DNA of 64,000 nt from Gammaproteobacteria bacterium (GTDB lineage Bacteria > Pseudomonadota > Gammaproteobacteria > CAJXQU01): contig JALSRM010000037.1 of the NCBI GenBank assembly GCA_026984775.1, forward strand, positions 49,604 through 113,603, written 5' to 3'. The position numbers and the translations under genes were made by a program. The notes beneath the pieces are model-generated. The model ran no database searches and was not told where the DNA came from. It saw only the letters and a program-made list of their open reading frames with translations. Below, one piece after another: positions 5,009-63,227 of this stretch (within the stretch, counting starts at the first letter, position 1; each line of letters opens with the position of its first letter).

Positions 5009-5734
5009 TCATTTATCCCAATGTCCACAAGTAAAACGCTGTTGTGGTTTGAATTCACGTTTGTAGCTCATTTTTTTACATTCCTCGATCCAGTAGCCGA
5101 GATAAAGCCAGTTTAGTCCCAAGTGTTTTGCATGTTCGATTTCATAGAGAATTGTATATCGGCCCAGACTGCGATGGGCGAGATCTGGATCGTAGAAGGT
5201 ATAAACTGCAGAGAGACCATCATCCAGCACATCTATGACCGCAACAGCTGCAAGTTGTTCCTCCAATCGGAATTCCAGGAAGTGTGTCTCCGACCAGTCA
5301 CCGATCAGGAATCGTTGATAATTCTCCTTGTTTGGGTTATCCATGCCACCTTTTGCATGGCGGGCTGAAATGTACTTTCGGTAGAGTTCGAAATGTTCCT
5401 GACGAAATTCAGCTGGCAAAACGATCGTTTCTAGGTCCCTGTTTTTCCTCCAGGTTCTACGCTGATTACGGTTAGGTTGGAACAACCTTACCGGTACTCG
5501 AACGGAAACACAGGCATTGCACTGGGCGCATTCGGGTCGATAGATAAATTCGCCGCTACGACGGAAACCATGTCTCGACAGAATACTGTACAGGTGCTTG
5601 TTTTTAGGCATATCAGGATCGACAAAGACCGTTGTCGCTATCCGATCTGGAAGATAACCGCAAGCATGAGATGGAGTTGCAAAAAAATTAATATTGACTG
5701 CGTTCTCTATCGAAGTCATTCTGTAATTTTCCAA
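5009..5734 (-). CDS. bpt: Arginyl-tRNA--protein transferase family protein (bacterial Bpt, aspartate/glutamate leucyltransferase)
   Basis: ATE N- and C-domain-like sequence (CGYLPDR...YRP.C..C..C); aat-bpt-infA order. Confidence 0.8.
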   Translation of the reverse strand: MENYRMTSIENAVNINFFATPSHACGYLPDRIATTVFVDPDMPKNKHLYSILSRHGFRRSGEFIYRPECAQCNACVSVRVPVRLFQPNRNQRRTWRKNRDLETIVLPAEFRQEHFELYRKYISARHAKGGMDNPNKENYQRFLIGDWSETHFLEFRLEEQLAAVAVIDVLDDGLSAVYTFYDPDLAHRSLGRYTILYEIEHAKHLGLNWLYLGYWIEECKKMSYKREFKPQQRFTCGHWDK

Positions 5735-6423
5735 GCCTGGTCTGAAGGATCTTGTGTACAGGCGCGTTCGAGTATGGATTTGAACAAAGCTCTTGGTATC
5801 AATTCAGCTCCCATCCTTCTAAGGTGATCGCTGTCAACCTGACAGTCAATCAATTCATAATCCCATTGTTGAAGCAAACTACACAGCTTGACCAGACAGA
5901 CTTTTGATGCATCAGTGATTCTGCTAAACATGGATTCACCAAAAAATACCCTGCCGATTGCAAGACCGTACAGACCACCAACAAGTTCACTGTCAAACCA
6001 GCACTCGATGGAATGTGCATAACCCATCAAATGCAAATTTGTGTATGCTTCTATCATCTCACCGGTTAGCCAGGTTCCCCGCTGATCCCGCCTCGGACTC
6101 GAGCATTCAGTGATGACCTCATTGAATGCACTGTCCCATGTGATTTTGAAGGTGTTTTTCTTCAAGGTACGTTTCAGGCTGCGGGAAATATGGATCCGAT
6201 CAGGATATAAAATTGCCCGGGGGTTTGGGGACCACCAGAGAATCGGTTGCTGATCGTCATACCAAGGGAAGATCCCATGTTGGTAGGCTTCCAGAAGCCT
6301 TTCCGGGCTGAGATCACCACCTGCTGCCAGTAATCCATTGGGTTCTTCGAGAGCATCGCTGATGTCAGGAAATCCCCTTTTATAGCGATCAGCAACAAAC
6401 CAGTAGAGCGTGGTTTCTTCCAT
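5716..6423 (-). CDS. aat: Leucyl/phenylalanyl-tRNA--protein transferase
   Basis: EPNGLLAAGGDLSPERLLEAYQHGIFPW is a typical Aat sequence; start chosen at MEETTLYW (ATG complement at 6421-6423) because the longer ORF to 6513 would overlap the divergent gene. Confidence 0.8.
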   Translation of the reverse strand: MEETTLYWFVADRYKRGFPDISDALEEPNGLLAAGGDLSPERLLEAYQHGIFPWYDDQQPILWWSPNPRAILYPDRIHISRSLKRTLKKNTFKITWDSAFNEVITECSSPRRDQRGTWLTGEMIEAYTNLHLMGYAHSIECWFDSELVGGLYGLAIGRVFFGESMFSRITDASKVCLVKLCSLLQQWDYELIDCQVDSDHLRRMGAELIPRALFKSILERACTQDPSDQAWKITE

Positions 6424-10677: not shown

Positions 10678-10691
10678 TGGTTGAATCAGGT

Positions 10692-12119
10692 TCAATAGAA
10701 CTCCTGAACCCATTGCGCCAGCTGCTCAAGAATCCTTTGATCACGTTGACTGAGTGCTTGTAGTGCGAGATCTTCCATACGTGACTCGAATTCAAACTTT
10801 GTCAGGGTACAGCCATATTTTCCTTCGACAATCCGTTCTTGGCAGAAGGCTGCCCAGTCCTGCTGTTCTCCTTCGGAGAGCGTTTCCGGCCAGTTACGCG
10901 CACGATAACGAAAGTAGAGTGTTTTCAGGCGTGGATCATTAAAAGGTGGCTGCCAGTTGGCAAGATCTTCTGGCTTAGATCGGAGCACCTGTTCACAGAT
11001 CAGCCGATCATCGTTGCTGATGAAGCCATCATAGAGTGCTGCATCGGCATCTACTTGTTCGCGTTTTTGTCTGTTGAGGTGCATCTGCTGCAAACGTTGT
11101 TTCAGTGTGCCATCCGAAAGCAGTTTTTCACGGTTTTTTTTCACCTGATCCCAGTGGATGTTCCAGCGCTCGGCCAGTTCAGGCGACAGGGTATTAACCG
11201 GCGCTAGAGCAGGGCATTTGTTGAGGTGAACACTCTTCAGAGCAACTCGCTGTTCATCCTTTGGGCGCTCGTCATTAGGTGTGAACAGGTTGATCGCGAT
11301 TTCATCCGGAGTCAGTGTGAGAAGATGCTCAGGATCATGCCGACAATCATAGACGATGATCTCATTTTTGTTGACTGGATGTTGGAGGATGGGGATCACT
11401 GGAGCTATACAGCCTTCTTCGACCTTGTACATACCTGAAACATGCAGTACGATCTCCTGTGTCTGGAGGTTAAGCATTCTGGCGGCATTCCCCTTTTGGC
11501 GCAGATCATAATAGAAATCGAACAGGCGTGGTTTCAGTTTTTTGATCAGGCGGGCGATGGCTAGAGTTGCCATGACATCTACAAGCGCATCGTGGGCACC
11601 TTCCTGCTCGATACCATTCGCATCTGTCAATAACTCTAGGCGAAAGCTGACTTTTCCCTCATCGTTTACAGGCCAAGAGAAATCTTCGGGCCGGAGTGCA
11701 TAAGTCATGCGAACAAGGTCTAGAATATCCCAGCGACTGTTACCTTCCTTCCATTCTCGTGCATAGGGGTCATAAAAGTTTCGGTATAGCCCGAACCGGG
11801 TCACTTCGTCATCAAAGCGGATACTGTTGTACCCAACACCGCAAGTGTGAGGTCTGGAAAGTTCTTTGTGGATGATCTCGAAAAAGGAGGCTTCATTCAT
11901 GCCTTTGTCATAGGCTAGTTGAGGTGTGATACCCGTTATCAGTGCAGCATCTGGAGACGGCAGAAAATCGGGGGCTGGGCGACAATAGATCATTATAGGC
12001 TCATCGATCAGTTCCAGTTCGAGAGTTGTTCTAACACCGGCAAACTGTACCGGTCGATCTCTCCGGGGATCGATACCCCAGGTTTCATAGTCATGCCAGA
12101 AAAATGTGGGTTCAGACAA
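10692..12119 (-). CDS. sbcB: Exodeoxyribonuclease I
   Basis: N-terminus FFWHDYETWGIDPRRDRPVQFAGVRT, the SbcB/XonA exonuclease domain; 475 aa. Confidence 0.9.
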   Translation of the reverse strand: MSEPTFFWHDYETWGIDPRRDRPVQFAGVRTTLELELIDEPIMIYCRPAPDFLPSPDAALITGITPQLAYDKGMNEASFFEIIHKELSRPHTCGVGYNSIRFDDEVTRFGLYRNFYDPYAREWKEGNSRWDILDLVRMTYALRPEDFSWPVNDEGKVSFRLELLTDANGIEQEGAHDALVDVMATLAIARLIKKLKPRLFDFYYDLRQKGNAARMLNLQTQEIVLHVSGMYKVEEGCIAPVIPILQHPVNKNEIIVYDCRHDPEHLLTLTPDEIAINLFTPNDERPKDEQRVALKSVHLNKCPALAPVNTLSPELAERWNIHWDQVKKNREKLLSDGTLKQRLQQMHLNRQKREQVDADAALYDGFISNDDRLICEQVLRSKPEDLANWQPPFNDPRLKTLYFRYRARNWPETLSEGEQQDWAAFCQERIVEGKYGCTLTKFEFESRMEDLALQALSQRDQRILEQLAQWVQEFY

Positions 12120-21868: not shown

Positions 21869-22996
21869 ATGACCAATCCTGACGGGAAAAGGACGGTTCT
21901 TGTAAACCTGATCGGAATCGATCAACGCAACCGGAATGTTATCGAAATGGTCTTCGAACGGGAATTCGACAACTCTTTTTCCCTTGGGAATACAGGTTCA
22001 GCAGATCTGAGTATCGTCGATCTGGACAAATATGGTGCTGAAGAGGAATGGTCAGCACTGCAACAGGCAAAGTCTGATCAGCTTGCGGTTCTCATGTCGA
22101 TAGATGAAAAACACAGGTCGCCAAATCATCTTTTTATCAAAAAACCTGTAACGATTGCTGATCTGGTTACTGCACTCAACAAGGCAAGGAATAAACTCGT
22201 TACAGGGACTTTTACACCGGAAAAAAAACAATACTCTTGGCGAAATATTTTTACTCCTCGTCTCTCAATAAAGAAAAAGAGAAGTACAGGTTCTGAACAC
22301 AAGAAAGAATCAACGAAATCTGATGCCATCAGATACCTTAGTGAGAAAGGTTATCTGATTGATGAAGTCAAAAAAGCCGTATTACTAGCAAATACGGAAG
22401 GCCATGGTATCAAGCTGCAAATTAACAATCAGGGAAGTATTTTTATTGATCCGACTGAACATTGGATCAATACCGATTTAACCCCTGAAGGTTTGAAGGA
22501 CCTGTGCGAGAGACCGATCGAACGCTCAGATTTTATGAAGCGTGTTTTCAGTGATCGGGAGTTTTCGAAGTATCTCGAGGAGTGGCGAGATACTCGTCTG
22601 AAACCAATAGATATAGATGCCTTTCTCTGGGATCTGGCATTGTGGACATATGATGGTGCATTACCTGCGGGTACTGACCTGAAAAAGAAAATCGTTCTCA
22701 GCTACTGGCCTGATCTGCCCCGGTTTACGCCTGTTCCGAATGCCATGCGGATTGCTGCACTTTGGGTTTCATGCCCCATGACCTTGCTTGAGACCAGCGA
22801 GGTACTCAAGATTTCTATGGAAGATGTCATCCGTTTTTACACGGCTGTGTCAAGTCTGGGATTGATCAAGGACGGAAGTCAGAACGAGAATCCCGGTAAT
22901 CAGCCTGAACTGAGTAGAACAACCGTTAGATCAGAGAAAAACAAAAGAGAACTCTATCTCCGTATAATCAAATATCTCAAAGGGCAAAATTCCTGA
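21869..22996 (+). CDS. Hypothetical protein: N-terminal receiver (REC)-like domain plus C-terminal domain of unknown function with an HTH-like end (DUF742-like?)
   Basis: N-terminus resembles CheY-like receivers (hydrophobic strand TVLVNLIG, candidate acceptor Asp in LSIVDLDKYG, conserved K-P in LFIKKPVT); the C-terminus ...TLLETSEVLKISMEDVIRFYTAVSSLGLIKDG resembles a small wHTH; no confident family assignment. Confidence 0.5.
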   Translation: MTNPDGKRTVLVNLIGIDQRNRNVIEMVFEREFDNSFSLGNTGSADLSIVDLDKYGAEEEWSALQQAKSDQLAVLMSIDEKHRSPNHLFIKKPVTIADLVTALNKARNKLVTGTFTPEKKQYSWRNIFTPRLSIKKKRSTGSEHKKESTKSDAIRYLSEKGYLIDEVKKAVLLANTEGHGIKLQINNQGSIFIDPTEHWINTDLTPEGLKDLCERPIERSDFMKRVFSDREFSKYLEEWRDTRLKPIDIDAFLWDLALWTYDGALPAGTDLKKKIVLSYWPDLPRFTPVPNAMRIAALWVSCPMTLLETSEVLKISMEDVIRFYTAVSSLGLIKDGSQNENPGNQPELSRTTVRSEKNKRELYLRIIKYLKGQNS

Positions 22997-22998
22997 TA

Positions 22999-23958
22999 AT
23001 GGAAATAACAAAACAAAAATCGTTGCCCACTGATTCTCATCTCGATGATTACAGAATCCAGAAATGCATTTCAGTTTCAGACGAATTTGTTACCTATCTG
23101 GCCATTGATCAACAGCTGGAATTGCAACTAATTATTACGGAGTACTTTCCTAGTGAAATCGTCTATAGAATGGATAACGGTACTGTTCATGTGAAAGAGC
23201 CGAGGCGAATTGCTGAATTTTTGGATAAGCTCAATGAGCTTCATAAACGAGTTAAAGCGAGGGTGTCTCGAAATGACAAGGGAGTCGACAATGTTATTCG
23301 TTTTCTTTTTTTCAATGGAACTGCTTATGTTGTCTCAAAATACAGTACCCGAACGGATTTGGATCGTTATCTCTCGGAAATGAACCTGACGATCCAAGGT
23401 AGTGAGTTATCGGGGTGTACAGGTAAAGACTCATTATGTCAGAAGGTAACGATCGAAAACAGTATCGTCTTTACTGGTTTTGCACGAGCAGGCAAGTCAA
23501 CAGCGATCAGGTTACTGAGTGACGGTGACATGATCGATAAAGAATCAGGTCTGGCTTATGGGAAACTGGGGACCGGTAGTCTTGAGATCTATTTGTTGGA
23601 ACTGTCCGCTGATCATTTTGAAAACTGTTTGAAAGCTGAACCAATGGGTTACGTCTTGCTGATCGATAACAGCAGAAAGGATCCTTTTAATCACCTTGAT
23701 TATTTTCTTGACAAAATGGACGAACATCGACTGGAAAATGTCGTGATCGGCATCACACATACTGATCAATCCAGGATTCCATCGATCCCTGATTATCATC
23801 TTCATCTTGAAAACAGATCTATCAATTCACGCAGAATATGCCCTATCTTCTCTGTTGATCCACGGAACAGGTCCGATGTGACCATGCTCATCAAGGCACT
23901 TATTTACTCTCATGATCCACTTCTGTCAGACATTTTTTTTGAAGACACGATCCTTTGA
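22999..23958 (+). CDS. Hypothetical P-loop NTPase, small-GTPase-like C-terminal domain with N-terminal domain of unknown function
   Basis: Walker A GFARAGKST; then a hhhhD box (VLLIDNSR) and GITHTD resembling the [N/H/T]KxD G4 motif of MglA/Rag-type GTPases; the start is coupled 3 bp after the upstream stop. Confidence 0.5.
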   Translation: MEITKQKSLPTDSHLDDYRIQKCISVSDEFVTYLAIDQQLELQLIITEYFPSEIVYRMDNGTVHVKEPRRIAEFLDKLNELHKRVKARVSRNDKGVDNVIRFLFFNGTAYVVSKYSTRTDLDRYLSEMNLTIQGSELSGCTGKDSLCQKVTIENSIVFTGFARAGKSTAIRLLSDGDMIDKESGLAYGKLGTGSLEIYLLELSADHFENCLKAEPMGYVLLIDNSRKDPFNHLDYFLDKMDEHRLENVVIGITHTDQSRIPSIPDYHLHLENRSINSRRICPIFSVDPRNRSDVTMLIKALIYSHDPLLSDIFFEDTIL

Positions 23959-24058
23959 AAAATATTTTTCTTCAAAGAGTTAATTCCCGCTGATTGAAGT
24001 AATTTGTTTACCGGCCGATACAGGTTGCGATATGGATTGATTCCGGGGTTTTATTTCC

Positions 24059-24421
24059 ATGCGTGAAGACATGCTTGTTTCGATATTGAATGAATTGAAT
24101 GGATCGACTGTCGACATCCAGGGATCGGCCGTTATTTCTATTGACGGATTATTGATCGCCAGTGCATTACCGACGAGTTTTGACGAAGAAATGGTAAGCG
24201 CAATGACAGCGGCAATGTTGATGCTTGGGGAGAGGACCGCCAGAGAACTACAGCGTGGTGAACTTGAGCAGGTGATTGTCAAGGGCCGTCTGGGTTATGT
24301 GATCATGGTCCGATCTGGTCCGGAATCTGTTCTTTGTGTACTTGCCCGTCCTGATGCCAAATTGGGGCTCGTACTGCTGGATGCAGCACGAGCCGCCGAA
24401 GATATTCCAAAGGTATTATGA
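24059..24421 (+). CDS. Roadblock/LC7 (MglB-like) domain protein
   Basis: 120 aa; IQGSAVISIDGLLIAS...EEMVSAMTAAMLMLGERTA...GYVIMVRSGPESVLCVLARPDAKLGLVLLD fits the Roadblock/LC7 fold pattern closely. Confidence 0.7.
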   Translation: MREDMLVSILNELNGSTVDIQGSAVISIDGLLIASALPTSFDEEMVSAMTAAMLMLGERTARELQRGELEQVIVKGRLGYVIMVRSGPESVLCVLARPDAKLGLVLLDAARAAEDIPKVL

Positions 24422-41007: not shown

Positions 41008-43515
41008 TTATATCGCCAGATGTGGCTGTTCCTTTAAGACTTTCTTTTTTTTCAGTAATTCCGTGACGTCCTTGGCCGGAAGTGGTTGACTGATTAGGAA
41101 CCCTTGGATCAGACCACATCCTCTATCTTTGAGGAAATCGATCTGAGCCTGAAGTTCCACACCTTCTGCTGTTACAGGCAATTCCAGGCTCGTTGCCATG
41201 GCAAGAATGGCAGAGATAATGGGTGCACTCGTGGTTTCAGGTGTAATATCCTGGACAAAACTTCGATCGACCTTGATTTTGTCGATGGGCAGTTTGCTGA
41301 GATAACTGAGGGAAGAGTAGCCAGTTCCAAAATCATCCATGGCAATCCGTACACCAAGCTCTTTGATTGCCGTCAAGGTTTCAGTTACAAGCTCTTCCGA
41401 ACTACTGATTGCGGTTTCGGTCAACTCTATTTCGAGCGCATGCGCAGGTAGAACATTTGATAAGAGGGCGTCCTGGATCACTTCTTTCAGATCATGCCGA
41501 TGCAATTGTGCGGCCGATGCATTGACCGAAACACAGAGTTCGGTGAAGCCTTCATCGTGCCATGCCTTAATTTGCCGGCAGGCTTCCATCAGTACCCATT
41601 CGCCAATGGAGACGATCAGTTCAGACTGTTCTGCAATGGGTATGAAACGGTCAGGACTGATTAGGCCTTTTTCGGGATGGTTCCAACGGATTAGGGCCTC
41701 CACGCTGACGATCTTTCCACTTTTGAGATCAAGCTGCGGTTGGTAGTGAAGCACGAACTCATTTCGGATCAGTGCCTGGCGCATCTCATTTTGCAGATTT
41801 AACCGTTCGAAAGCTGCAATGTTCATGGATTCTTGATAATAGCTGTAGGCATTTTTCCCCTTTTCTTTGGCATGGTACATGGCCATATCTGCATTTCTGA
41901 TCAGAGTTTCTGCATCGAGACCATCCTTTGGGTAGGTCGTGATACCGATACTGGCGCTGACATGTAAGTCATGGTTATCCACATGGAAAGGGATTGATAA
42001 TGCCTCAAGTACTCTGTTTGCCACTGTCGCTGCTTCGTAGGGACTATTGATATTCGGCAGGAAAATGATGAATTCGTCACCGCCAAGCCTGGCCACCGTT
42101 TCCGTTTCTGAACGTGACGTAGAAGGACGGCTAAGATAATCATCAGCCCGTAGACACTGTGCAAGTCTTTCCGATAACTCTCTCAGAACTGTGTCGCCTG
42201 CATGGTGGCCGAGTGTGTCATTGATCACCTTAAAATCATCCAAGTCCAGGTACATCAGTGCCAGTGACTGTTTGTGCCGTCTTGCATGAGCCAGTGCATG
42301 ATTGAGATATTCGCCGAACATAAGCCGGTTGGGTAGTTTTGTCAGACTGTCATGATATGCAAAATACCGGATTTGCTCATTTGACTGGCGGAGGTTTCGG
42401 CTCATTTCCTTGAGTGAGGCTGCGAGTTCACCAAGTTCGTCACGTTTGTTGATATCGATATTGAAACCCAGATTACCCTTGCCAATTTCCTGGGCTGCGT
42501 TTCCAAGTTGCTGCAATGGCTTGACCAAGACATATTTAATGATTAGAAATCCCAATGCGGCAAACAGAAATATAGTGATGCCAACCACGCCACTCATGCG
42601 ATAAAAATAGTCACGGCTACTCTCCATGATCAGCTTCGACGGGAGCATGCTGAACATGTAAAGGTTGTCAGAGATTTTTTGCTTGTGGAGTGTGGCCTTG
42701 GTGCCATGATACTGAATTTCTTTAGGTGATTTTTTGATATTGTCCTTGATCATTTCTTCTACTTTAGGGAGATCGAGTTCTTCTCCCAGCCCAAGATCAC
42801 TCGCATCTCTCAGCACATTACCAAGTTTGTCGGTAAAAAAGATAATCCCAAACTTTTCAGTCAATGCCTTTTCAATGGCTGTATCAATCACATCAATTGA
42901 AGAGATAATATCAAGATAGCCAAAAAGTGATTTATTGATTCCAGAGGAGAGGTCACCGTAGTAAATTTTTCTGGTATGAATAAAAAGTGGGTGCTTGTCA
43001 TCAGGATAGAAAAAAGAAGTCGTATCTCTATGCAAGGAGGTCGTGTCAATTTTGATCTGTTTTGACGCAGACTCATTTTCAGTGGGTATGATCATGATAT
43101 CGGATCCTGAAGTGTTCCGTATCCTGATCAAGATGATTTCGGGATAGACCTGTCGGTAATGCTCAAAAATTTCGGCCAGGTTGGGCATCAGGACATTATA
43201 TTTTTCATAGATATTGTTGCTCTCGGTAAACTTGCGTAATATTTTCGAGTTGACCAGCATTTGGGCAACATTTTCGGTTTCTTCAATCCGTAATTTGAGA
43301 TTTTTGGCTTCTTCACTCGAGAGTACATCCAGTGCCTGTAGGGCGTATTCACGTGTCTTTGACGCAATCTCGGAATAAGTGACCCAGCCCATTAGCAGTA
43401 TCGGGATCACTGCAATTGGTGCGAGAATCAGTAGAATCTTTGCCTGTAATTTCAATGGCTTGCCTTTGGGTAGTTTTAATTTCTCACTCTGCACCATGGG
43501 ATGATGCATTTTCAA
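41008..43515 (-). CDS. Sensor diguanylate cyclase/phosphodiesterase (periplasmic sensor domain-TM-HAMP-GGDEF-EAL)
   Basis: RLGGDEF, EALIRW and DDFGTGYSS motifs intact; an N-terminal periplasmic region of about 270 aa between two TM segments; HAMP-like linker. Confidence 0.85.
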   Translation of the reverse strand: MKMHHPMVQSEKLKLPKGKPLKLQAKILLILAPIAVIPILLMGWVTYSEIASKTREYALQALDVLSSEEAKNLKLRIEETENVAQMLVNSKILRKFTESNNIYEKYNVLMPNLAEIFEHYRQVYPEIILIRIRNTSGSDIMIIPTENESASKQIKIDTTSLHRDTTSFFYPDDKHPLFIHTRKIYYGDLSSGINKSLFGYLDIISSIDVIDTAIEKALTEKFGIIFFTDKLGNVLRDASDLGLGEELDLPKVEEMIKDNIKKSPKEIQYHGTKATLHKQKISDNLYMFSMLPSKLIMESSRDYFYRMSGVVGITIFLFAALGFLIIKYVLVKPLQQLGNAAQEIGKGNLGFNIDINKRDELGELAASLKEMSRNLRQSNEQIRYFAYHDSLTKLPNRLMFGEYLNHALAHARRHKQSLALMYLDLDDFKVINDTLGHHAGDTVLRELSERLAQCLRADDYLSRPSTSRSETETVARLGGDEFIIFLPNINSPYEAATVANRVLEALSIPFHVDNHDLHVSASIGITTYPKDGLDAETLIRNADMAMYHAKEKGKNAYSYYQESMNIAAFERLNLQNEMRQALIRNEFVLHYQPQLDLKSGKIVSVEALIRWNHPEKGLISPDRFIPIAEQSELIVSIGEWVLMEACRQIKAWHDEGFTELCVSVNASAAQLHRHDLKEVIQDALLSNVLPAHALEIELTETAISSSEELVTETLTAIKELGVRIAMDDFGTGYSSLSYLSKLPIDKIKVDRSFVQDITPETTSAPIISAILAMATSLELPVTAEGVELQAQIDFLKDRGCGLIQGFLISQPLPAKDVTELLKKKKVLKEQPHLAI

Positions 43516-48956: not shown

Positions 48957-49460
48957 ATGAAAAACAATTCAGTCCCGCCTATATCACTTGCCTTATTGAA
49001 AGATCCGTTTCATTGCCTTGCCTTTGGATTTGGCACAGGTTTTGCACAAATAGCACCAGGTACGTTCGGTACGCTTGTCGGACTCCCTTTGTATCTGGCC
49101 ATGCAACCATTGCCGCTTTTACCGTACTGTGTGATGACGGCCATATTATTTATTGTCGGCATTTGGATCTGTGACCGCGCAGCCAGGGAATTGAGGGTCC
49201 ATGATCATCCTGGTATCGTCTGGGATGAGGTGGTCGGATATCTTGTAACAATGACTCTGAGCCCCCCTGAGTGGGGCTGGATGGTATTGGGTTTTATCCT
49301 GTTTCGTATATTTGATATTTTCAAACCTTGGCCGATAAAGAAGATTGATCAGAGGATCTCAGGTGGCTTTGGCATCATGCTGGATGATCTGATCGCTGGT
49401 GGCTTTGCATTGGCATGTATGCAGTTACTCATTCATGTCGGCAGCATGAACATTTTTTGA
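48957..49460 (+). CDS. pgpA: Phosphatidylglycerophosphatase A
   Basis: FGFGTGFAQIAPGTFGTLVGLPLY is the PgpA signature; 167 aa. Confidence 0.85.
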   Translation: MKNNSVPPISLALLKDPFHCLAFGFGTGFAQIAPGTFGTLVGLPLYLAMQPLPLLPYCVMTAILFIVGIWICDRAARELRVHDHPGIVWDEVVGYLVTMTLSPPEWGWMVLGFILFRIFDIFKPWPIKKIDQRISGGFGIMLDDLIAGGFALACMQLLIHVGSMNIF

Positions 49461-49488
49461 AAATAGCAAGGAAAGAGGATTCGGAAAC

Positions 49489-50118
49489 ATGGAAAATGAA
49501 CAGAGCAGATACTGGGACAGGTTCTCGGTCCGTCTAATGGCTTTTTCCATCTTTTTATTAATGATGTCAACCTCGGTATTCGCCGATGTATATAAATACG
49601 TTGACAAGAACGGTCATGTTTATCTTACAGATCGGCCCGATCATAAAGGCTATAAACTTTTGGTAAGGACCTGGAAGGGCTGGCAGGAGAAGAAAACGAA
49701 TTATGTTGATTTAAAAAAACGGCGAAAGAAATACGAGAAGATCATCAAGACTGCTGCAAGAAAAAATAAACTTCCAGATGCCCTTGTTCACGCTGTGATT
49801 ACGGCTGAGTCAGCCTATAACCCCAAGGCCAAATCACGTGCTGGGGCCGTCGGCATGATGCAGCTGATGCCTGCAACAGCTGAGCGTTATGGAGTGAATA
49901 ATCGCAAGGATCCTGAACAAAATATTGCAGCTGGAACACGGTATCTACGTGATTTGCTGGAGATGTTCGATAATGATTTGAAACTGGCGTTGGCGGCTTA
50001 TAATGCTGGAGAAGGTGCGGTCATGAAATATGGCAATAAAATCCCACCCTACAAGGAAACACAACATTATGTAAAAAAAGTTCTGAAATATTACAAGAAA
50101 TACAGTTCAACACTATAA
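49489..50118 (+). CDS. Lytic transglycosylase (SLT domain) with N-terminal DUF4124-like segment
   Basis: SLT catalytic motif ESAYNPKAKSRAGAVGMMQLMPATA; N-terminus VYKYVDKNGHVYLTDRP. Confidence 0.75.
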   Translation: MENEQSRYWDRFSVRLMAFSIFLLMMSTSVFADVYKYVDKNGHVYLTDRPDHKGYKLLVRTWKGWQEKKTNYVDLKKRRKKYEKIIKTAARKNKLPDALVHAVITAESAYNPKAKSRAGAVGMMQLMPATAERYGVNNRKDPEQNIAAGTRYLRDLLEMFDNDLKLALAAYNAGEGAVMKYGNKIPPYKETQHYVKKVLKYYKKYSSTL

Positions 50119-50156
50119 AAGCAAGGCAATGGTTCTTTAAGTTTGTCGGCCCTGGT

Positions 50157-50651
50157 TCAGGTTTTGCGGCCCCGATAGATGAGGTTGGAACGTTTCTTTC
50201 TTCCGCTCTTTTTATTCAAGGTGGATGCAGTGGATACTTTTTGTCCCCGATAGGTCAGATCGGGCGATGCAGGCGCTTGGTATTCGTCTGTTGGTTTGTC
50301 CTCTAGTTTCAGCATTTTCATCGCCAGATTGGTGACCAACTTTAGAGAGACGAAGTTGACCCCCGCATCGCCCAGTACAGCGAGAATGAAATCCATATCT
50401 TCCTTGCGGTGACTTTTTCTGAAATAGAGGTTTTTTTTGTCAAATTTGAGAATGAAGTCCGAACAATTTTGAAAGTTGTCTGCGATGACATCGTACATCA
50501 TCAGAATACGCTGAGGGAGTTTCTGTAGCATGGCTTGATCCGTGTATTGTGGCATCTGTTCAAAATAGACCTCGCCTTCGAGATCAAAGACCAATAGGCC
50601 TTCTACTTTGGGCGTATCAAGGATGGCATCAATGGTTTTTTGAAAGCTCAT
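50157..50651 (-). CDS. Roadblock/LC7-like domain protein with Lys/Arg-rich C-terminal tail
   Basis: VEGLLVFDLEGEVY...DFILAVLGDAGVNFVSLKLV fits the Roadblock-like pattern; 4-bp overlap with the upstream gene; tail KKSGRKKRSNLIYRGRKT. Confidence 0.45.
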   Translation of the reverse strand: MSFQKTIDAILDTPKVEGLLVFDLEGEVYFEQMPQYTDQAMLQKLPQRILMMYDVIADNFQNCSDFILKFDKKNLYFRKSHRKEDMDFILAVLGDAGVNFVSLKLVTNLAMKMLKLEDKPTDEYQAPASPDLTYRGQKVSTASTLNKKSGRKKRSNLIYRGRKT

Positions 50652-51019
50652 GATTTCGCCGTTTTATACTTGGCCAGGAATTCGTTAGGGTTAGTGTCTT
50701 TATCGAAAAGGATGCCTACGGTTTCCTTTCTCCCGGGCATACAGACTGCGGTCAGCTCGTCACAGACGATGTGGATCTCATCCAGTTTCTCCAGGCCAAA
50801 AGTCTCTCCGATCAGTTCGGTGATTTGGTTGAAGTAGATGAGGACTTCACCAAACCGTTCAGCAATTTCGTCCGAGGCGACGTTTTGCGTGCCGTCATTA
50901 CGGATTGCGACCCAGCCCTGAATCGCAGGGTGGGAAAGTAACTGACTTTTGGTCTCATTTTTATTGATATTTTGAACTTTACTCATGCTGTCAGCATAAA
51001 CCTTATTCGTCTGTGACAC
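50648..51019 (-). CDS. Roadblock/LC7-like domain protein
   Basis: [19 protein letters not shown]...[40 protein letters not shown] fits the Roadblock/LC7 pattern; 17-bp overlap with the ilvD 3' end. Confidence 0.5.
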
Positions 51020-52679
51020 AGCCCTCAGAGGCGGTTTTTACGGTTTTTATAAATTTATACAGAGTGCCACGGGTAACCTTGTAGGGTGGTTGGACCCACG
51101 CTTTTCTTCTTTTATCCATTTCCTCATCGGAAATTTCAAGATCAATGCGGTTTGTTTCTGCATTTATGGTAATCAAATCGCCATTTTCAACCAGTGCAAT
51201 GGGCCCACCTTCCTGCGCTTCAGGGACGATATGGCCAACGATGAAACCGTGTGACCCTCCCGAAAAGCGGCCGTCAGTCAGTAACGCAACATCGGCACCG
51301 AGTCCTGCGCCCATAATGGCCGACGTGGGGGTCAGCATTTCAGGCATTCCAGGTCCACCTTTTGGTCCTTCATAGCGAATGATGACGACATCACCTTTTT
51401 CGATGGCCTTGTTTTCCAGAGCAGCCAACATCTCTTCCTCTGAGTCATAAACCTTCGCTGGGCCACGAAACATCAGTCCTTCCTTGCCAGTGATCTTGGC
51501 CACAGAGCCGCCGGGAGCCAAGGAGCCCTTCAAGATACGAAGATGTCCGGTTGGTTTAATCGGGTTATCCAAGGGTCTGATGATTTCCTGGTTTTCCTTC
51601 AGCCCCGGAAGTTCCGCCAGATTCTCGGCTATGGTTTTACCGGTAACGGTCAAGCAGTCTCCGTTGATCATGCCTTCTTCAAGCAGGAATTTCATCACCG
51701 CGGGTGTTCCGCCAATCCGATGTACATCTTCCATCACGTATTTGCCACTTGGCTTGAGATCCGCAAGAAAGGGTGTGCGATCACTGACCGCCTGAAAGTC
51801 ATCGATGGTGAGCTCAACATCAACGGAGCGGGCCATGGCGATCAGGTGCAGCACTGCATTGGTGGAGCCTCCCAGGACAGTCAACAAGACCATCGCATTT
51901 TCAAAGGCTTCCCGGGTCATGATGTCACGTGGCCGGATATCTTTCTCCAGCAACAGGCTGATGGCTTCACCTGCGAGGCGGCATTCATCCAGCTTTGCCG
52001 GGTCTTCGGCTGGGGTTGAAGAGCTGTAGGGCAGGGCCATCCCCATGGCTTCGATGGCTGAGGCCATGGTATTTGCAGTGTACATGCCTCCGCATGCACC
52101 CGCACCTGGACAGGCATTTCTGACGATTTTCTGTCGGGTCTCCTCGTCGATGTGCCCGCTGATGTATTCGCCGTAGCTTTGGAATGCAGAAACGATATCT
52201 AATGTTTTGCTGTTGCAGTGTCCAGGTTTGATTGTGCCACCATAGACCATCAAGGAGGGGCGGTTCAGGCGACCCATGGCGATCATCACGCCGGGCATGT
52301 TTTTATCGCAGCCAGGGATCGAAATATTGGCATCGTACCACTGAGCAGACATGACGGTCTCGATGGAGTCTGCGATGAGATCACGGGACTGCAGCGAATA
52401 GCTCATACCTTCGGTACCCATGGAGATTCCGTCACTGACACCGATTGTATTGAAACGCATACCCACCAGCCCAGCAGCGACGACACCCTCCTTGACCTTT
52501 GCCGAGAGATCGAGCAGATGCATATTGCAGGGGTTGCCTTCGTACCAGACACTTGCTATACCCACCTCGGGTTTGTTCATATCTTCTTCGGAAAGGCCGG
52601 TTGCGTAGAGCATGGCCTGGGAGGCACCTTGTGATTTGGGTTGGGTAATTCGTGAACTGAATTTGTTCTTCTGAGTCAT
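51003..52679 (-). CDS. ilvD: Dihydroxy-acid dehydratase
   Basis: 558 aa; the Fe-S Cys ligands (CNMHL, CDKNMPG, CPGAGAC) and overall IlvD/EDD family sequence. Confidence 0.95.
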
Positions 52680-52684
52680 AGTTT

Positions 52685-52697
52685 CAACTTGTCAAGT
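52685..52697. promoter_or_regulatory. 13-bp palindrome AACTTGTCAAGTT in the ilvD/arsS divergent intergenic region
   Basis: Read directly from the sequence. Confidence 0.25.
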
Positions 52698-52770
52698 TTC
52701 ATTATTGTGAAAACCGGCAGGATACTATAAGCCTGTTGAAATTTCAGTTTTTCGAATACACTGTGCAACC

Positions 52771-53724
52771 ATGCATGATACTCTGCCTTTTTTGAAAACT
52801 ACCGACTTCCCTACCATCCGCCGCGGGATGCTCGAGTCCTTGCAGGTCAATCTGGGCTATCGCTGTAACCAGACTTGCCTACACTGTCACGTCAACGCAG
52901 GCCCAAGAAGGACGGAAATGATGTCCCGCAAAACGGTCGATGCGATCATCGATTTTTTGCGACGTGGAAGGATCCAAACCCTGGACCTGACAGGGGGGGC
53001 TCCTGAAATGAACCGGTATTTCCGTGATCTTGTAACTGCAGCAAGGGAAATGGACATCACCATTATCGACCGCTGCAATCTGACCATCCTCCTGGAACCG
53101 GGGTATGAGTCCCTCGCCGTGTTTCTGGCGGAAAATGGTGTTGAGATCAATGCCTCCTTGCCCTGTTACCTGGAAGAAAATGTGGATCGGCAAAGGGGAG
53201 ATGGTGTTTTTACCACAAGTATTCGGGCGATCAGAAGGCTCAACGAACTGGGGTATGGCCATCCTGGAACGGATCTCAGGTTGAATCTTGTCTACAACCC
53301 CCAAGGCCCGACCTTGCCGCCATCCCAGAACTCACTCGAGACAGCTTATCGACAACACCTGCTTGATAACTACGGTATTCATTTCAATCAATTACTCGTT
53401 ATCACCAATATGCCCATCCAGCGCTTCGGTAGTACCCTGATCAGCAAAGGTCAGTTCGAATCCTACATGCAACTGTTGCGAGAAAACCACAAAGAGGAAA
53501 ATTTACAGTCTGTGATGTGTCGCAGCCTGTTGAGTGTGGACTGGCAGGGCTACGTCTATGATTGTGACTTCAACCAAATGCTGAAGATCCCGATGCCGCA
53601 CGGGAAACGTCATATCAGTGAAATCAAGGTCGAAGAGACAGAAGGTATGCCAATCACAGTCCTTGATCACTGCTATGCCTGCACGGCCGGACAGGGCAGC
53701 AGCTGTGGAGGTGCCCTGGATTAG
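52771..53724 (+). CDS. arsS: Arsenosugar biosynthesis radical SAM protein (TIGR04167 radical SAM/Cys-rich domain)
   Basis: CxxxCxxC (CNQTCLHC) radical SAM motif near the N-terminus; C-terminal Cys-rich tail (CDFNQ..., HCYACTAGQGSSCGG); followed by arsM and the two signature glycosyltransferases. Confidence 0.8.
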   Translation: MHDTLPFLKTTDFPTIRRGMLESLQVNLGYRCNQTCLHCHVNAGPRRTEMMSRKTVDAIIDFLRRGRIQTLDLTGGAPEMNRYFRDLVTAAREMDITIIDRCNLTILLEPGYESLAVFLAENGVEINASLPCYLEENVDRQRGDGVFTTSIRAIRRLNELGYGHPGTDLRLNLVYNPQGPTLPPSQNSLETAYRQHLLDNYGIHFNQLLVITNMPIQRFGSTLISKGQFESYMQLLRENHKEENLQSVMCRSLLSVDWQGYVYDCDFNQMLKIPMPHGKRHISEIKVEETEGMPITVLDHCYACTAGQGSSCGGALD

Positions 53725-53736
53725 AAAAAGGAAAAA

Positions 53737-54867
53737 GTGATAAATATGAATAAAGAAGCAAGTGTACTTGAGCGTTATTCCGAGGGTGCGCAGGAACAGC
53801 AACCGGAACTTTGTTGCCCGGTGGATTATGACCGATCGTTGTTAGCTCTCCTGCCGCAAGAGATCATTGAAAAGGATTATGGCTGCGGAGATCCCTCCCG
53901 CTATGTGAAAGAAGGGGACGTGGTGCTCGATCTAGGCTCAGGATCGGGCAAGATCTGCTATATGGCGGCTCAACTCACCGGTGAGGCCGGACGAGTCATC
54001 GGCGTCGATATGAATGATGACATGCTTGACCTGGCACGCAAGTACAAACCGGAAATGGCAAAGAAGCTGGGATCTGATCGGGTTGAGTTCCTCAAAGGAC
54101 AGATCCAGGATCTGGCACTGGACTTGACCGCGACAGAGGCGTACCTGGCTAATCATCCGGTGACCGATTTCCGCAGTCTTAGCGAGTTTAAAGCCTGGCA
54201 GGAGAAACAGAGAAGAGAAAAACCATTGATCCCATCGGATTCTATCGATCTTGTGGTTTCCAACTGTGTGCTCAACTTGGTGGATGATCAAGAGAAACAG
54301 CAGATGATCGAGGAAATTTTCAGGGTGACAAAACCAGGTGGCCGAATCGCCATCTCAGACATCGTCAGCGACGAACCCAGCCCGGAGAGCATGAAAACTG
54401 ATCCCGAACTTTGGAGTGGCTGTATTTCCGGAGCCATGACCGAGCAGGCGTTTTTGCAGGCCTTTATCGATGCCGGTTTCGCTGCCGTCAAACTGGATAA
54501 GTGGGGTAATGAACCTTGGCGGACGGTTGAGGGCATCGAATTCCGTGCGGTAACGGTGACGGCTTGCAAGCCAGAAAACAGCAAATGCCTGGACTATGGC
54601 CATGCCGTGGTCTACCGTGGACCCTTCCGTGAGGTGCATGATGACGAAGGGCATGTCTTCCCTCGTGGTGAACGCATTGCCGTCTGTGAACGAAGTTACC
54701 GGCTGTTGATGGGTGGTTTCTATGCGGATCAGTTCATTGGTATCGCCCCTAGAAAGCAATCTTCACCACGCGCCTGGTGTCATCCTTCAGGCACACGTCG
54801 ATCACCTGCAGAAACAAAGGGTGGTCGTCATGAAGGTAGTACCAGTGATGCATCATGTTGTTGAGCC
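53737..54867 (+). CDS. arsM: Arsenite S-adenosylmethionine methyltransferase
   Basis: SAM motif VLDLGSGSGK; conserved Cys pairs (ELCCPVDYD, YGCGDP, SGC); the C-terminal 40 aa look unusual (possible length variation). Confidence 0.75.
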
Positions 54868-54878
54868 TGGTCTGAAAC

Positions 54879-55580
54879 ATGCTAATCGAGGGTCCTGAAC
54901 TTTCCATCATTCTCCCGGTATGGAATGAAGAACCGTTGATCGGAGCGTGCCTGTTCAGACTGCAATCGCTCCGCAAACGGGGCGTGGAGATCGTTGTTGC
55001 CGACGGGGGCAGCAGCGACAGAACGGTCTCTCTCGCCGAGCCGCTCTGTGATCATCTGGTTTGCTCGACGAAGGGACGCGCCACACAGATGAATACCGGG
55101 GCAAGGGTGGCAACCGGCCGTATTCTGCTTTTTCTGCATGTGGATACGGAACTCCCTGCCAATGCCTATGAGGAGATCCTTTCTGCCATGGAGTTACCGC
55201 ATCTTTGGGGGCGGTTTGATGTGAAGCTCACCGGTTCGCATTTCATGTTCCGGTTCATTGAACACATGATGAATCTGCGATCCGGTCTGACTGGGATCGC
55301 GACGGGTGATCAGGCCATTTTTGTCACCAGGGCCGCCTTTGAGCAGGTGGGTGGATTCCCTGATCAGCCATTGATGGAAGATATTGAGATAAGCCGAAGG
55401 TTGAAAAAATTGGCGTTCCCGGTCAGTCTCAAATCGCGAGTGATCACCTCCAGTCGCCGTTGGGAAGAGAATGGCATCTATACAACTGTTCTGTTGATGT
55501 GGTGGTTGCGTTTTCTCTATTTCATAGGGGCACACCCGCGGGTGCTGCATAAGATGTACGAAAAAAAGGCTCAGGCTTGA
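54879..55580 (+). CDS. Family-2 glycosyltransferase of the rSAM/ArsS-associated type (TIGR04283-like)
   Basis: GT-A fold N-terminus LSIILPVWNEE...VVADGGSSDRT; DxD-like VDTE; position in the arsS cluster. Confidence 0.7.
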   Translation: MLIEGPELSIILPVWNEEPLIGACLFRLQSLRKRGVEIVVADGGSSDRTVSLAEPLCDHLVCSTKGRATQMNTGARVATGRILLFLHVDTELPANAYEEILSAMELPHLWGRFDVKLTGSHFMFRFIEHMMNLRSGLTGIATGDQAIFVTRAAFEQVGGFPDQPLMEDIEISRRLKKLAFPVSLKSRVITSSRRWEENGIYTTVLLMWWLRFLYFIGAHPRVLHKMYEKKAQA

Positions 55581-55593
55581 GAGAGGATTCCCT

Positions 55594-56382
55594 ATGGATA
55601 TGAGCTATCGCCTAGGTGCTTTTCTCGGCATGTTTTTCATTATCGCCCTATGGGAATTCCTCAGCCCACGGCGAGATGAAGATCAGCAACGTAGCCGGCG
55701 CTGGCCGGTGAATCTTGGATTGGTGACCTTGAATTCGATTCTAGTCAGGTTTACGGTCGGCGGGTTGATCTATCAAAGTGCCCTGTTAGCCCAACAAAAT
55801 CATATCGGCCTATTGAACTGGGCTGGAAGCGGCAGTGGCTGGAATTTGGTCATGACTTTGATCATGCTCGATCTCACCATCTATGGCCAGCATGTTGCTT
55901 CTCACAAAATCCCCTTGCTGTGGAAATTGCATCAGGTACACCACACGGATCCTGTTTACGACACGACCACTGGTGTTCGTTTTCACCCACTGGAGATCTT
56001 TTTCTCCTTGGGAGTGAAGGTGGTGGCTGTGTTTTTGATTGGAGCGGATCCATTCGCAGTGATCCTGTTTGAAGTGATTTTGAACACCAGCGCTGTCTTC
56101 AATCATGGCAATATCGCGCTTCCTCTTCATGTGGATCGTTATCTGAGAAAAATCGTCGTGACGCCTGACATGCACCGTGTGCATCACTCGGTCTATCGAG
56201 AGGAGACCGACAGCAATTACGGGTTCGCGCTTTCCGTTTGGGATCGGCTGTTTGGAACATATCGCGATCAGCCCCGTGACGGGCATGAGAAAATGCGTAT
56301 TGGTTTACCTTATGCCAGAGGGAAAGAGGCTATCACCCTGTCAGGTGTCATCACCATGCCCCTGCACTATCCACCCAAATGA
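55594..56382 (+). CDS. Fatty acid hydroxylase / sterol desaturase superfamily membrane protein
   Basis: Histidine boxes HVASHK, HQVHHTD, HRVHHS within TM-rich protein. Confidence 0.75.
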   Translation: MDMSYRLGAFLGMFFIIALWEFLSPRRDEDQQRSRRWPVNLGLVTLNSILVRFTVGGLIYQSALLAQQNHIGLLNWAGSGSGWNLVMTLIMLDLTIYGQHVASHKIPLLWKLHQVHHTDPVYDTTTGVRFHPLEIFFSLGVKVVAVFLIGADPFAVILFEVILNTSAVFNHGNIALPLHVDRYLRKIVVTPDMHRVHHSVYREETDSNYGFALSVWDRLFGTYRDQPRDGHEKMRIGLPYARGKEAITLSGVITMPLHYPPK

Positions 56383-56999
56383 GGTATCCAGACTCACGGA
56401 TACTGATCTTTTGCAAGGCACCGGTTCCCGGCAAGGTCAAAACCCGGCTTTTGGAAACACTCCGCCCGGAACAGGCCACTCGACTGCATGAACACCTTGC
56501 CATAAAAACTATCGAAACCGCCATTGGCAGTGAACTCTGTCCTGTGGAGATCTGGTGTCACCCCAACCCTGATCATCCTTTTTTCCAGAACCTCTCCGGG
56601 GTTTCAGCGTTCTACGCACAAGAAGGGGAAAATCTGGGTGAACGTATGTATGGCGCCTTGGTTTCCGTACTGGAGCGAGCTGATGCGGCAGTTCTCATCG
56701 GTACCGATTCACCTTCATTGACACAAGGGCTTTTGATGCAGGCATTGGCAGCACTCCATGCCGATCATGATCTCGTCATCGCTCCGGCAGAAGATGGTGG
56801 TTATACTCTCATTGGTATGAAGCAACCTGTTCAGTCATTATTTGAAGATCTCCAGTGGGGTACAGCTAAAGTCATGGAACAGACTCGGGAGAGAATCATG
56901 AAGGCTGGTCTCTCATACCTTGTACTCCCATTGCAGTGGGACGTAGATGATCCACATGACCTTCGACGTCTGATTGACCTTGGCGAGTTTTCGATTTAA
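56379..56999 (+). CDS. DUF2064 glycosyltransferase-like protein of the rSAM/ArsS-associated type (TIGR04282-like)
   Basis: ILIFCKAPVPGKVKTRL N-terminus typical of DUF2064; 4-bp overlap with the hydroxylase gene. Confidence 0.7.
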   Translation: MRYPDSRILIFCKAPVPGKVKTRLLETLRPEQATRLHEHLAIKTIETAIGSELCPVEIWCHPNPDHPFFQNLSGVSAFYAQEGENLGERMYGALVSVLERADAAVLIGTDSPSLTQGLLMQALAALHADHDLVIAPAEDGGYTLIGMKQPVQSLFEDLQWGTAKVMEQTRERIMKAGLSYLVLPLQWDVDDPHDLRRLIDLGEFSI

Positions 57000-62809: not shown

Positions 62810-62886
62810 CGGGGCATAGCGCAGTCTGGTAGCGCATCTGCTTTGGGAGCAGAGGGTCGGGGGTTCGAATCCCTCTGCCCCGACCA
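62810..62886 (+). tRNA. tRNA-Pro (anticodon TGG)
   Basis: Cloverleaf: acceptor CGGGGCA/TGCCCCG, anticodon loop TTTGGGA, T-arm GGTTCGAATCC, 3' CCA encoded. Confidence 0.85.
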
Positions 62887-62915
62887 ATACGAAAATTCCT
62901 GACTGGAAATACAGT

Positions 62916-62992
62916 GCGCCTGTAGCTCAACCGGATAGAGCACCGGCCTTCTAAGCCGGGGGTTGCAGGTTCGAGTCCTGCCGGGCGCGCCA
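62916..62992 (+). tRNA. tRNA-Arg (anticodon TCT)
   Basis: Acceptor GCGCCTG/CGGGCGC, anticodon loop CTTCTAA, T-arm GGTTCGAGTCC, CCA encoded. Confidence 0.85.
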
Positions 62993-63052
62993 GCCGTCCA
63001 GGCCGAGTGACTTGTCCCGGTTTTGGAGTCATACTAAAATTGCTACTACAAT

Positions 63053-63129
63053 GGTGAACGTAGCTCAGTTGGTAGAGCCCTGGGTTGTGATCCCGGTGGT
63101 CGTGGGTTCGAGTCCCATCGTTCACCCCA
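63053..63129 (+). tRNA. tRNA-His (anticodon GTG) with extra 5' G(-1)
   Basis: GGTGAACGTAGCTCAGTTGGTAGAGC...TTGTGAT...GGTTCGAGTCC...TTCACCCCA; closely resembles E. coli tRNA-His. Confidence 0.85.
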
Positions 63130-63151
63130 TTTTCCTTTGACTAGAATCGAT

Positions 63152-63227
63152 GGGTCATTAGCTCAACTGGTAGAGCACCGGACTCTTAATCCGTTGGTTC
63201 GGGGTTCGAGTCCCCGATGACCCACCA
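63152..63227 (+). tRNA. tRNA-Lys (anticodon CTT)
   Basis: GGGTCATTAGCTCAACTGGTAGAGC...anticodon loop CTCTTAA...GGTTCGAGTCC...GACCCACCA; resembles E. coli tRNA-Lys except for the CTT anticodon. Confidence 0.8.

Follow-up and report, generated by a model that had tools for sequence, protein, structure and literature searches.

The 64,000-nucleotide stretch of gammaproteobacterial contig JALSRM010000037.1 analyzed here (the window) carries on its minus strand two small genes, called B and A in the order in which they are read, which follow ilvD, the gene for dihydroxy-acid dehydratase (Table 1), and whose products are, by prediction, a pair of Roadblock-fold proteins. An earlier note on this DNA had described them as proteins of 123 and 164 amino acids whose genes overlap each other in an ATGA tetranucleotide, the upstream one also overlapping the 3' end of ilvD by 17 bp, with translational coupling to ilvD. 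The length of A and the 4-bp ATGA junction are found in the sequence as described, and it is the start of B that has to be revised. The methionine corresponding to the ATG at 50986 is invariant and is the start of 15 of 15 B homologues in the family alignment, the existing gene call for an identical B sequence (P0023, in the gene table of locus L010) gives 112 amino acids, and the possible N-terminal extensions upstream of B in its relatives are unrelated in sequence; therefore, this ATG is taken as the start of B. A B protein of 123 amino acids beginning at the upstream GTG is ruled out by the same homologue starts and unrelated extensions, and both this length and the 17-bp overlap arose because the longest open reading frame (ORF) had been taken. 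As the true start of B lies 16 nt past the ilvD stop codon, translational coupling to ilvD is unsupported. In relatives, the spacer between ilvD and B measures 16-86 nt.

No promoter-like or terminator-like consensus was found in the 16-nt spacer between ilvD and B, and a scan of positions 49400-53000 revealed no promoter-like site and terminator-like hairpins that lie within coding sequence only and occur at chance frequency. One such hairpin (50568-50585, minus strand) is located inside the coding sequence of A and is probably due to chance, because shuffled sequence is expected to contain just as many such sites as the region does. B and A are most likely cotranscribed with ilvD, from the ilvD promoter. 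Searching the whole window with Rfam returned four tRNAs only, and neither a riboswitch nor a leader was detected near ilvD, B, or A; the tRNAs form a cluster of their own at 62810-63227 on the plus strand (Pro-TGG, Arg-TCT, His-GTG, Lys-CTT). On the 3' side of A, a convergent gene for an SLT-domain transglycosylase is found at a distance of 38 nt, followed by pgpA, a gene of the IalB family, and a TrmO-like gene. The immediate neighbors of the pair in the window are thus ilvD and the transglycosylase gene, and no GTPase gene adjoins it, as had been noticed before.

Both A and B are genuine genes under purifying selection. Among 5.8 billion proteins, 22 clusters of homologues were obtained for A (E-values down to 1e-102) and 15 for B (E-values down to 1e-67), and the members of both families are unnamed or called "hypothetical protein" in every source that names one. 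A profile search with the core of A gave no relatives past 24 clusters, the reach of this search being limited by its word prefilter. In pairwise codon comparisons of the window with eight related loci, the proportion of nonsynonymous differences (pN) was 0.05-0.36 as compared to 0.48-0.97 for synonymous differences (pS), the latter being mostly saturated, and their ratio omega ranged from 0.03 to 0.26 in those pairs for which it could be computed.

AlphaFold2 models were built on the family alignments of 15 sequences for B and 22 sequences for A. The model of A displays the succession alpha-beta-beta-alpha-beta-beta-beta-alpha with a predicted local distance difference test score (pLDDT) above 90 in the core and becomes disordered from residue 121. 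The model of B displays beta-beta-alpha-beta-beta-beta-alpha with a core pLDDT of about 89, a low-confidence N-terminus, and no confident first helix. The models show the alpha-beta-beta-alpha-beta-beta-beta sandwich expected of Roadblock/LC7 proteins, and the order of elements in A is that of MglB-type Roadblock domains. When the model of B was compared by Foldseek with PDB structures, all of the top 50 matches were Roadblock, LC7, LAMTOR, or MglB chains with template modeling (TM) scores of 0.51-0.64, and the top structural matches of both A and B were all Roadblock proteins, with Z-scores clearly above those of GAF- or profilin-like proteins. Both proteins begin with the pattern hydrophobic-x-x-x-P-x-V/I-x-G, a strand, and D-x-x-G (IDAILDTPKVEGLLVFDLEG in A), a start that is typical of Roadblock domains.

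A and B are both Roadblock-fold proteins by prediction, yet they fail the Pfam model by sequence. Neither protein of the window matched Robl_LC7 (PF03259; gathering threshold 23 bits) at E-values up to 10, and when profiles of the two families were run against the sequences of the entire PDB, those of MglB included, only chance matches and no Roadblock protein were obtained. Among relatives, matches to Robl_LC7 below the threshold were obtained for 7 of the 22 members of the A family (best E-value 0.0018), for 5 of 34 B-like proteins (best E-value 5.2e-5), and for one distant A-like protein (18.9 bits, E-value 0.0012), and two of the 34 B-like proteins weakly matched Pfam LAMTOR5 (E-values 0.0035 and 0.016). 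When broad profiles of A-like and B-like proteins were aligned to each other with hhalign, a probability of 77.5% and an E-value of 1.9e-5 were obtained, and as this alignment is in structural register, A and B are very divergent, distant paralogues. It is because of the predicted structures and the sub-threshold matches in relatives that the Roadblock fold is assigned. The Roadblock-like sequence patterns reported in the earlier note, for which a Robl_LC7 search had been recommended, thus find their counterpart in the fold and in the relatives, but not in a match of the window proteins themselves. With the product of the gene at 24059, a Pfam Robl_LC7 protein (E-value 6e-16), the window holds three Roadblock-type proteins, as had been counted previously. 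Neither A nor B matched an anti-phage defense model of PADLOC at E-values up to 0.1, and no P-II Pfam domain was found in either of them, their predicted fold being Roadblock and not PII; what A-like proteins have in common with PII is just the six-residue pattern of the T-loop apex discussed below.

When 1.84 billion representatives were searched in full by HMMER with the B profile, 30 proteins were obtained at E-values up to 1e-3, and loci were gathered for the proteins matching this profile and for 30 metagenome matches (locus numbers with prefix L). Wherever the downstream sequence was long enough, in 45 of 45 sources, an A-like gene is located directly after the B-like gene; in the seven sources lacking an A-like gene, the sequence ends at most about 135 nt past the B gene or inside it. 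Within the gammaproteobacterial clade of the window (gamma clade), the two genes overlap by 4 nt or by 1 nt or are separated by 3 nt; at distant loci they are mostly 5-14 nt apart, in a few cases up to 67 nt, and the pair is kept even between subclades whose B proteins are no more than 17-35% identical. That the two genes stay together at such depth, in the same order and closely spaced, argues for coexpression and a physical complex. B and A are a separate, obligately paired couple, and the suggestion that the two genes might be a separate regulatory pair agrees with this arrangement and with the Roadblock fold predicted for both. In three of the 30 proteins obtained with the B profile (P0059, encoded in L045 at 5239-5934, P0061, and P0062), an N-terminal PatA_N domain (PATAN/DUF4388) is fused to the B domain; the occurrence of PATAN genes near MglB homologues had already been noted (PMC4316618, citing Makarova 2006).

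What distinguishes A from a simple Roadblock domain is its C-terminal tail, which is Lys/Arg-rich as stated in the earlier note (12 K/R versus 3 D/E in residues 119-164) and which contains two copies of a motif with Y-R-G at its center, the second one at the very C-terminus (Table 1). The sequence [YFW]RG is present within the last 12 residues of 32 of 36 distinct complete A-like proteins, and all four exceptions belong to the gamma clade, the close relatives of window A having two, one, or no copies of the motif. The linkers of distant A-like proteins differ greatly in sequence and abound in Ala and Pro, but carry the same kind of end peptide, as in ...VRMFRGRAY and ...VRMYRGRPY in the largest distant clade (main clade) and ...SYRGNTY in L052, further examples being ...YYRGQVYYDEE, ...CVYRGVPFS, and ...RMWRGQWVD. 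Such an end peptide, kept on flexible linkers that are dissimilar, is what characterizes a short linear docking motif. The tail also resembles DUF4278 (PF14105; cut-off 25.3 bits), with scores of 14.2 bits for whole window A, 17.5 bits for its tail alone, and, as the best value among the relatives, 24.9 bits in the case of the P0002 tail. Two-copy tails score near the threshold and 8 of the 22 members of the A family match at E-values up to 1; the gathering score was reached by none of the A proteins scored. DUF4278 corresponds to the N-terminal part of IF17, the cyanobacterial glutamine-synthetase inactivating factor (PMC6212724), and is also found in small basic proteins under the control of glutamine riboswitches (PMC6316151).

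Table 1. Features of the ilvD-B-A locus and of the GTPase-like gene cluster (window coordinates).
Feature	Position	Strand	Basis or detail
ilvD, dihydroxy-acid dehydratase, 558 amino acids	51003..52679	-	ORF listing; upstream neighbor of B
Spacer, 16 nt, from ilvD stop to B start, no overlap	50987..51002	-	sequence
Gene B, short (predicted) Roadblock-fold subunit, 112 amino acids	50648..50986	-	start ATG 50986, stop TGA 50650..50648
Longest ORF containing B, 123 amino acids, from GTG 51019	50648..51019	-	ORF listing
ATGA, overlap of B stop and A start, 4 bp	50648..50651	-	sequence
Gene A, long (predicted) Roadblock-fold subunit, 164 amino acids	50157..50651	-	start ATG 50651, stop TGA 50159..50157
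Predicted Roadblock core of A, residues 1-118	50298..50651	-	secondary structure, pLDDT by block, conserved alignment block
Basic tail of A, residues 119-164	50160..50297	-	pLDDT <50; predicted disordered
Tail motif copy 1, L-T-Y-R-G-Q-K-V, residues 132-139	50235..50258	-	sequence
Tail motif copy 2, L-I-Y-R-G-R-K-T, residues 157-164, C-terminal	50160..50183	-	sequence
Three-gene cluster 21869, 22999, 24059	21869-24421	+	ORFs, Pfam

The genes accompanying the pair differ between lineages. The gamma clade has a syntenic neighborhood comprising a radical-SAM/DUF3641 gene, ilvD, B, A, and the genes for SLT, pgpA, IalB, and TrmO, and the order ilvD-B-A is kept in L001-L004, L006, L009, and L010, down to 46% B identity. 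As the whole neighborhood is syntenic, adjacency to ilvD is not independent evidence, and the linkage is restricted to this clade, being absent at all distant B/A pairs; conservation of the ilvD-Roadblock-Roadblock arrangement, which had been proposed as a check, thus holds within the gamma clade and not beyond it. A block at 52771-56999 on the plus strand of the window, divergent from ilvD, contains the radical-SAM/DUF3641 gene, a gene for a protein of 375 amino acids, a glycosyltransferase-like gene, and further genes, and is syntenic in L001-L006. At 41008-43515 on the minus strand, the window carries a large membrane sensor-like ORF of 835 amino acids (N-terminus LKLQAKILLILAPIAV), and this ORF recurs a few kb from the pair in the gamma-clade relatives L003 and L004 (about 8499-10937).

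The main clade derives from metagenomes of soil and fresh water; there, the pair directly precedes a gene for a protein of 390-450 amino acids composed of a receiver domain and a sigma54-type AAA+ domain with its lid (L016, L017, L033, L034, L036-L039, L041, L044, and L046; for example, L036 8937-10268). Its Walker A motif is degenerate (GEPGVEFE, without Lys), and neither a GAFTGA motif nor a helix-turn-helix (HTH) was detected in it. This protein may be an NtrC-like pseudo-ATPase and the partner of the main-clade pair; no homologue of its gene was found in the window. Several loci of the main clade carry an mreB-mreC-PBP2 cluster from which the module is transcribed divergently (L016 6649-7665, L021 774-1790, L028 6721-7734), an arrangement that may be lineage synteny only. 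In two lineages, genes encoding GGDEF or GGDEF-EAL proteins adjoin the pair. In three lineages, the neighbors are ammonium-transporter genes: in L011 (208-4366), the nearest outgroup of the gamma clade, the pair is divergent from amtB-glnK-amtB; in L045 (5239-10241), a PatA_N-B fusion gene and an A-like gene are followed by amtB-glnK-amtB; and in L052 (6001-12011), amtB lies 32 nt downstream of B and A on the same strand, with no glnK present and glnD two genes away. These three lineages represent three different subclades in both the B and the A trees and share 22-32% B identity. In the window and in all other B/A loci gathered, amtB is absent.

No flanking sequence examined has a recognizable small GTPase. 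A probe sequence for MglA gave no matches in 381 kb comprising the window and the loci, and no homologues of the genes at 22999 or 21869 were found near B/A pairs elsewhere in about 317 kb of flanking sequence. In the window itself, a GTPase-like gene is part of the cluster of three genes listed in Table 1. The gene at 21869 encodes an unannotated protein of 375 amino acids. In the product of 22999 (319 amino acids), an N-terminal stretch resembles the N-terminal region of the kinase PpkA (E-value 7e-9), and the C-terminal half contains GFARAGKST as Walker A motif, with THTD where G4 is expected and DPR where G5 is expected; the product shows weak similarity to Rab, and no Pfam GTPase match was obtained for it. 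The kinase-like N-terminal extension on a GTPase-like protein is unusual. The Robl_LC7 protein encoded by 24059 adjoins 22999. The Group 3 MglA system of beta- and gamma-Proteobacteria possesses its own coupled MglB homologue or homologues, one or two in number, together with a conserved unknown protein having receiver-like and winged-HTH-like ends, and its MglA homologue has a G4 motif without Lys and DAR as G5 motif (PMC4316618). The cluster 21869-24059 fits such a Group 3 system, and as 22999 has its own Roadblock partner in 24059, the system would be self-contained. Apart from the shared fold, nothing ties it to A and B.

Taken together, we consider it reasonably probable that B and A form a Roadblock heterodimer which serves as a small signaling adaptor, the tail of A being a tethered ligand whose partner varies by lineage. 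B and A would be produced in a fixed ratio and would assemble as a heterodimer, which we infer from their obligate co-encoding and which is the economical inference because Roadblock proteins that have been characterized function in dimeric form: MglB, itself a dimer, binds MglA as a monomer (PMC4316618), and MfpD is reported to be a stable dimer (PMC13015309). The dimer would then function as an adaptor in signal transduction, with the [YFW]RG peptide of the tail docking onto a partner protein, which depending on the lineage might be the receiver protein with its degenerate AAA+ domain, AmtB/PII, or a cyclic di-GMP enzyme. In the lineage of the window, the module would be expressed together with ilvD and without a dedicated adjoining partner gene. 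Several points weigh against this interpretation, for which all evidence is computational. The window proteins score below every Pfam and NCBIfam threshold, and the structural models are of monomers only and derive from shallow alignments. The tail motif has been lost or degraded in four gamma-clade lineages (L003, L004, L005/L007, and L009), so that the tail may be dispensable in this clade. No partner has been identified for B and A in the window genome, no dedicated partner gene adjoins them, and cotranscription with ilvD rests only on the 16-nt spacing and on the lack of promoter or terminator consensus matches.

The association with amtB allows a more specific reading, in which the tail of A would be a tethered mimic of the apex of the T-loop of PII/GlnK proteins (Y46-R47-G48-x-E-Y51) and, anchored on the Roadblock dimer, would dock on PII targets, in particular by placing its Arg in the cytoplasmic pore exit of AmtB or by competing with GlnK or GlnD. 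The pair adjoins ammonium-transporter genes in three lineages of three different subclades, one of which has the arrangement B-A-amtB without glnK; most A tails end in Y/F-R-G-x-x-Y, with an Arg-Tyr spacing like that of Arg47 and Tyr51; GlnK reads IYRGSEY in L045 and LYRGAEY in L011; and two-copy tails resemble DUF4278/IF17 (24.9 versus 25.3 bits). However, the match was noticed post hoc and extends over four positions, and GlnK R47A still binds AmtB normally, so that the Arg is not required for binding in the model system. Furthermore, most B/A loci, including those of the main clade and of the gamma clade with the window, have no amtB in reach, and the gamma clade has L, F, V, or T instead of Tyr four positions past the Arg. 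On this evidence, T-loop mimicry is regarded as unlikely, if worth entertaining. A related and likewise rather improbable idea is that B and A are an undescribed bacterial nutrient-signaling adaptor, a Roadblock heterodimer whose flexibly linked, T-loop-like YRG tail regulates AmtB or other PII/GlnD targets; the pair would then occupy the usual operon position of glnK in the B-A-amtB lineage, and in the window lineage the module would have moved beside ilvD, where it may connect nitrogen status with the synthesis of branched-chain amino acids.

Other readings concern the neighbors in the window. The earlier note had proposed that B and A might be an MglB/MglC-like heterodimer acting in trans on the product of 22999, be it as GTPase-activating protein (GAP), guanine nucleotide exchange factor (GEF), or adaptor. 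The Walker A, G4, and G5 features and the weak Rab similarity of this product speak for a GTPase-like partner, some Group 3 MglA systems employ two MglB homologues (PMC4316618), and the C-terminal region of MglB is reported to be an allosteric regulator of MglA (PMC6785124), which would be a precedent for a functional tail. Nevertheless, 22999 and its Robl_LC7 partner already constitute a 1:1 arrangement, the distance to A and B is 26 kb, A and B have no detectable sequence relation to MglB, and near the other B/A pairs neither a GTPase-like gene nor a homologue of 22999 or 21869 was found; the proposed partnership finds no support and appears highly doubtful. It is even harder to credit that B and A are an accessory or regulator dedicated to IlvD, controlling for example the dehydratase or its Fe-S cluster. 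The order ilvD-B-A, with its spacer of 16-86 nt, persists throughout the gamma clade, even where B identity has fallen to 46%, and H72, C75, and C82 of B are invariant in the close family, but the adjacency belongs to a neighborhood that is syntenic as a whole in these related genomes, and ilvD is missing at every distant B/A pair. A metal or Fe-S site formed by the three residues and tied to IlvD was rejected, as H72 and C75 vary in the wider B family, in which C82 is mostly conserved. Finally, a fold of the GAF/profilin type, which would make A and B sensors of small molecules and not a Roadblock dimer platform, is given the least credence of all, as the top matches of both proteins are Roadblock proteins with clearly higher Z-scores, the order of elements in A is that of MglB-type domains, and no conserved pocket residues were identified.

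The Roadblock fold and the general logic of dimeric adaptors are known already, whereas an obligate heteropair, a conserved C-terminal [YFW]RG, the absence of a GTPase, and this set of neighbors are not described, and a literature search yielded no paper in which Roadblock proteins are connected with AmtB or PII. The pair defines a family that is named in no library searched. Roadblock proteins are mainly familiar as the dimeric platforms of small GTPases, namely MglB in bacteria and Ragulator in eukaryotes, and should the heterodimer and the docking of the tail prove true, bacterial Roadblock scaffolds would act beyond GTPase control. If T-loop mimicry were true, it would constitute a new mode of AmtB regulation and provide a lead on the function of the YRG motif in DUF4278/IF17 proteins. 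The most interesting associations are those seen in relatives and not in the window, for which the analysis yields a corrected start codon of B and the removal of the presumed translational coupling to ilvD from the annotation.

Among known systems, MglB is small and cytoplasmic, too, and its C-terminal extension is functional, as that of A may be. However, MglB is a homodimer whereas B and A are two different subunits always encoded together, A and B have no detectable sequence similarity to MglB, no MglA-type gene was detected near any B/A pair with the MglA probe, and the tail of A bears its [YFW]RG peptide after a disordered linker. In the survey of PMC4316618, MglB homologues were defined by BLASTP (e <1e-4) or by a Robl_LC7 architecture of 129-179 amino acids, and coupling was taken here to mean an MglA-family GTPase gene within four genes; since A and B show neither MglB homology nor coupling to MglA, they are outside the MglB family so defined. 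Orphan MglB homologues without a nearby GTPase made up 328 of 749, and by the time of that 2014 survey no orphan bacterial MglB homologue had been characterized experimentally (PMC4316618). MglC from Myxococcus is also a Roadblock protein that is reported to be an adaptor and not a GAP (PMC4719450), but it acts with MglB, RomR, and MglA in polarity control, is not encoded in a fixed overlapping gene pair, and has no YRG tail. CvnB and MfpD from the actinobacterial conservons resemble B and A in belonging to multi-gene signaling modules; conservons are reported to hold a small GTPase together with a histidine-kinase-like protein and a DUF742 protein (PMC13343842), none of which is linked to B/A.

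For the tail, DUF4278/IF17 proteins and the PII/GlnK T-loop are the closest counterparts. With the former, the tail of A shares a score just below the model threshold and a basic, probably disordered character, and DUF4278 proteins are linked to nitrogen control in cyanobacteria; in A, however, the motif is appended to a predicted Roadblock domain and occurs in non-cyanobacterial organisms. With the T-loop (Y46-R47-G48-A-E-Y51), most A-like C-termini share Y/F-R-G-x-x-Y, and three B/A lineages adjoin amtB, the target of the T-loop, but the fold is entirely different, the motif of A is a free C-terminal peptide and not a loop, and where the second Tyr would be expected, the window copies have V or T; the resemblance is a hypothesis.

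The eukaryotic counterpart is Ragulator, in which different Roadblock proteins (LAMTOR2/LAMTOR3, also known as p14/MP1, and LAMTOR4/LAMTOR5) form a heterodimeric scaffold. Ragulator binds the Roadblock domains of Rag GTPases, whereas neither a Rag-like nor any other GTPase is linked to B/A, and no sequence relation past the fold is apparent. Nevertheless, B and A are likewise two different proteins of predicted Roadblock fold, and two B-like relatives weakly match LAMTOR5. LAMTOR4 and LAMTOR5 are truncated Roadblock domains, and B, with its weak or short first helix, is apparently truncated as well. If the link to amtB is meaningful, both systems would also share a role in nutrient signaling, and B/A would then be a bacterial counterpart of Ragulator-like scaffolds for the sensing of amino acids or nitrogen.

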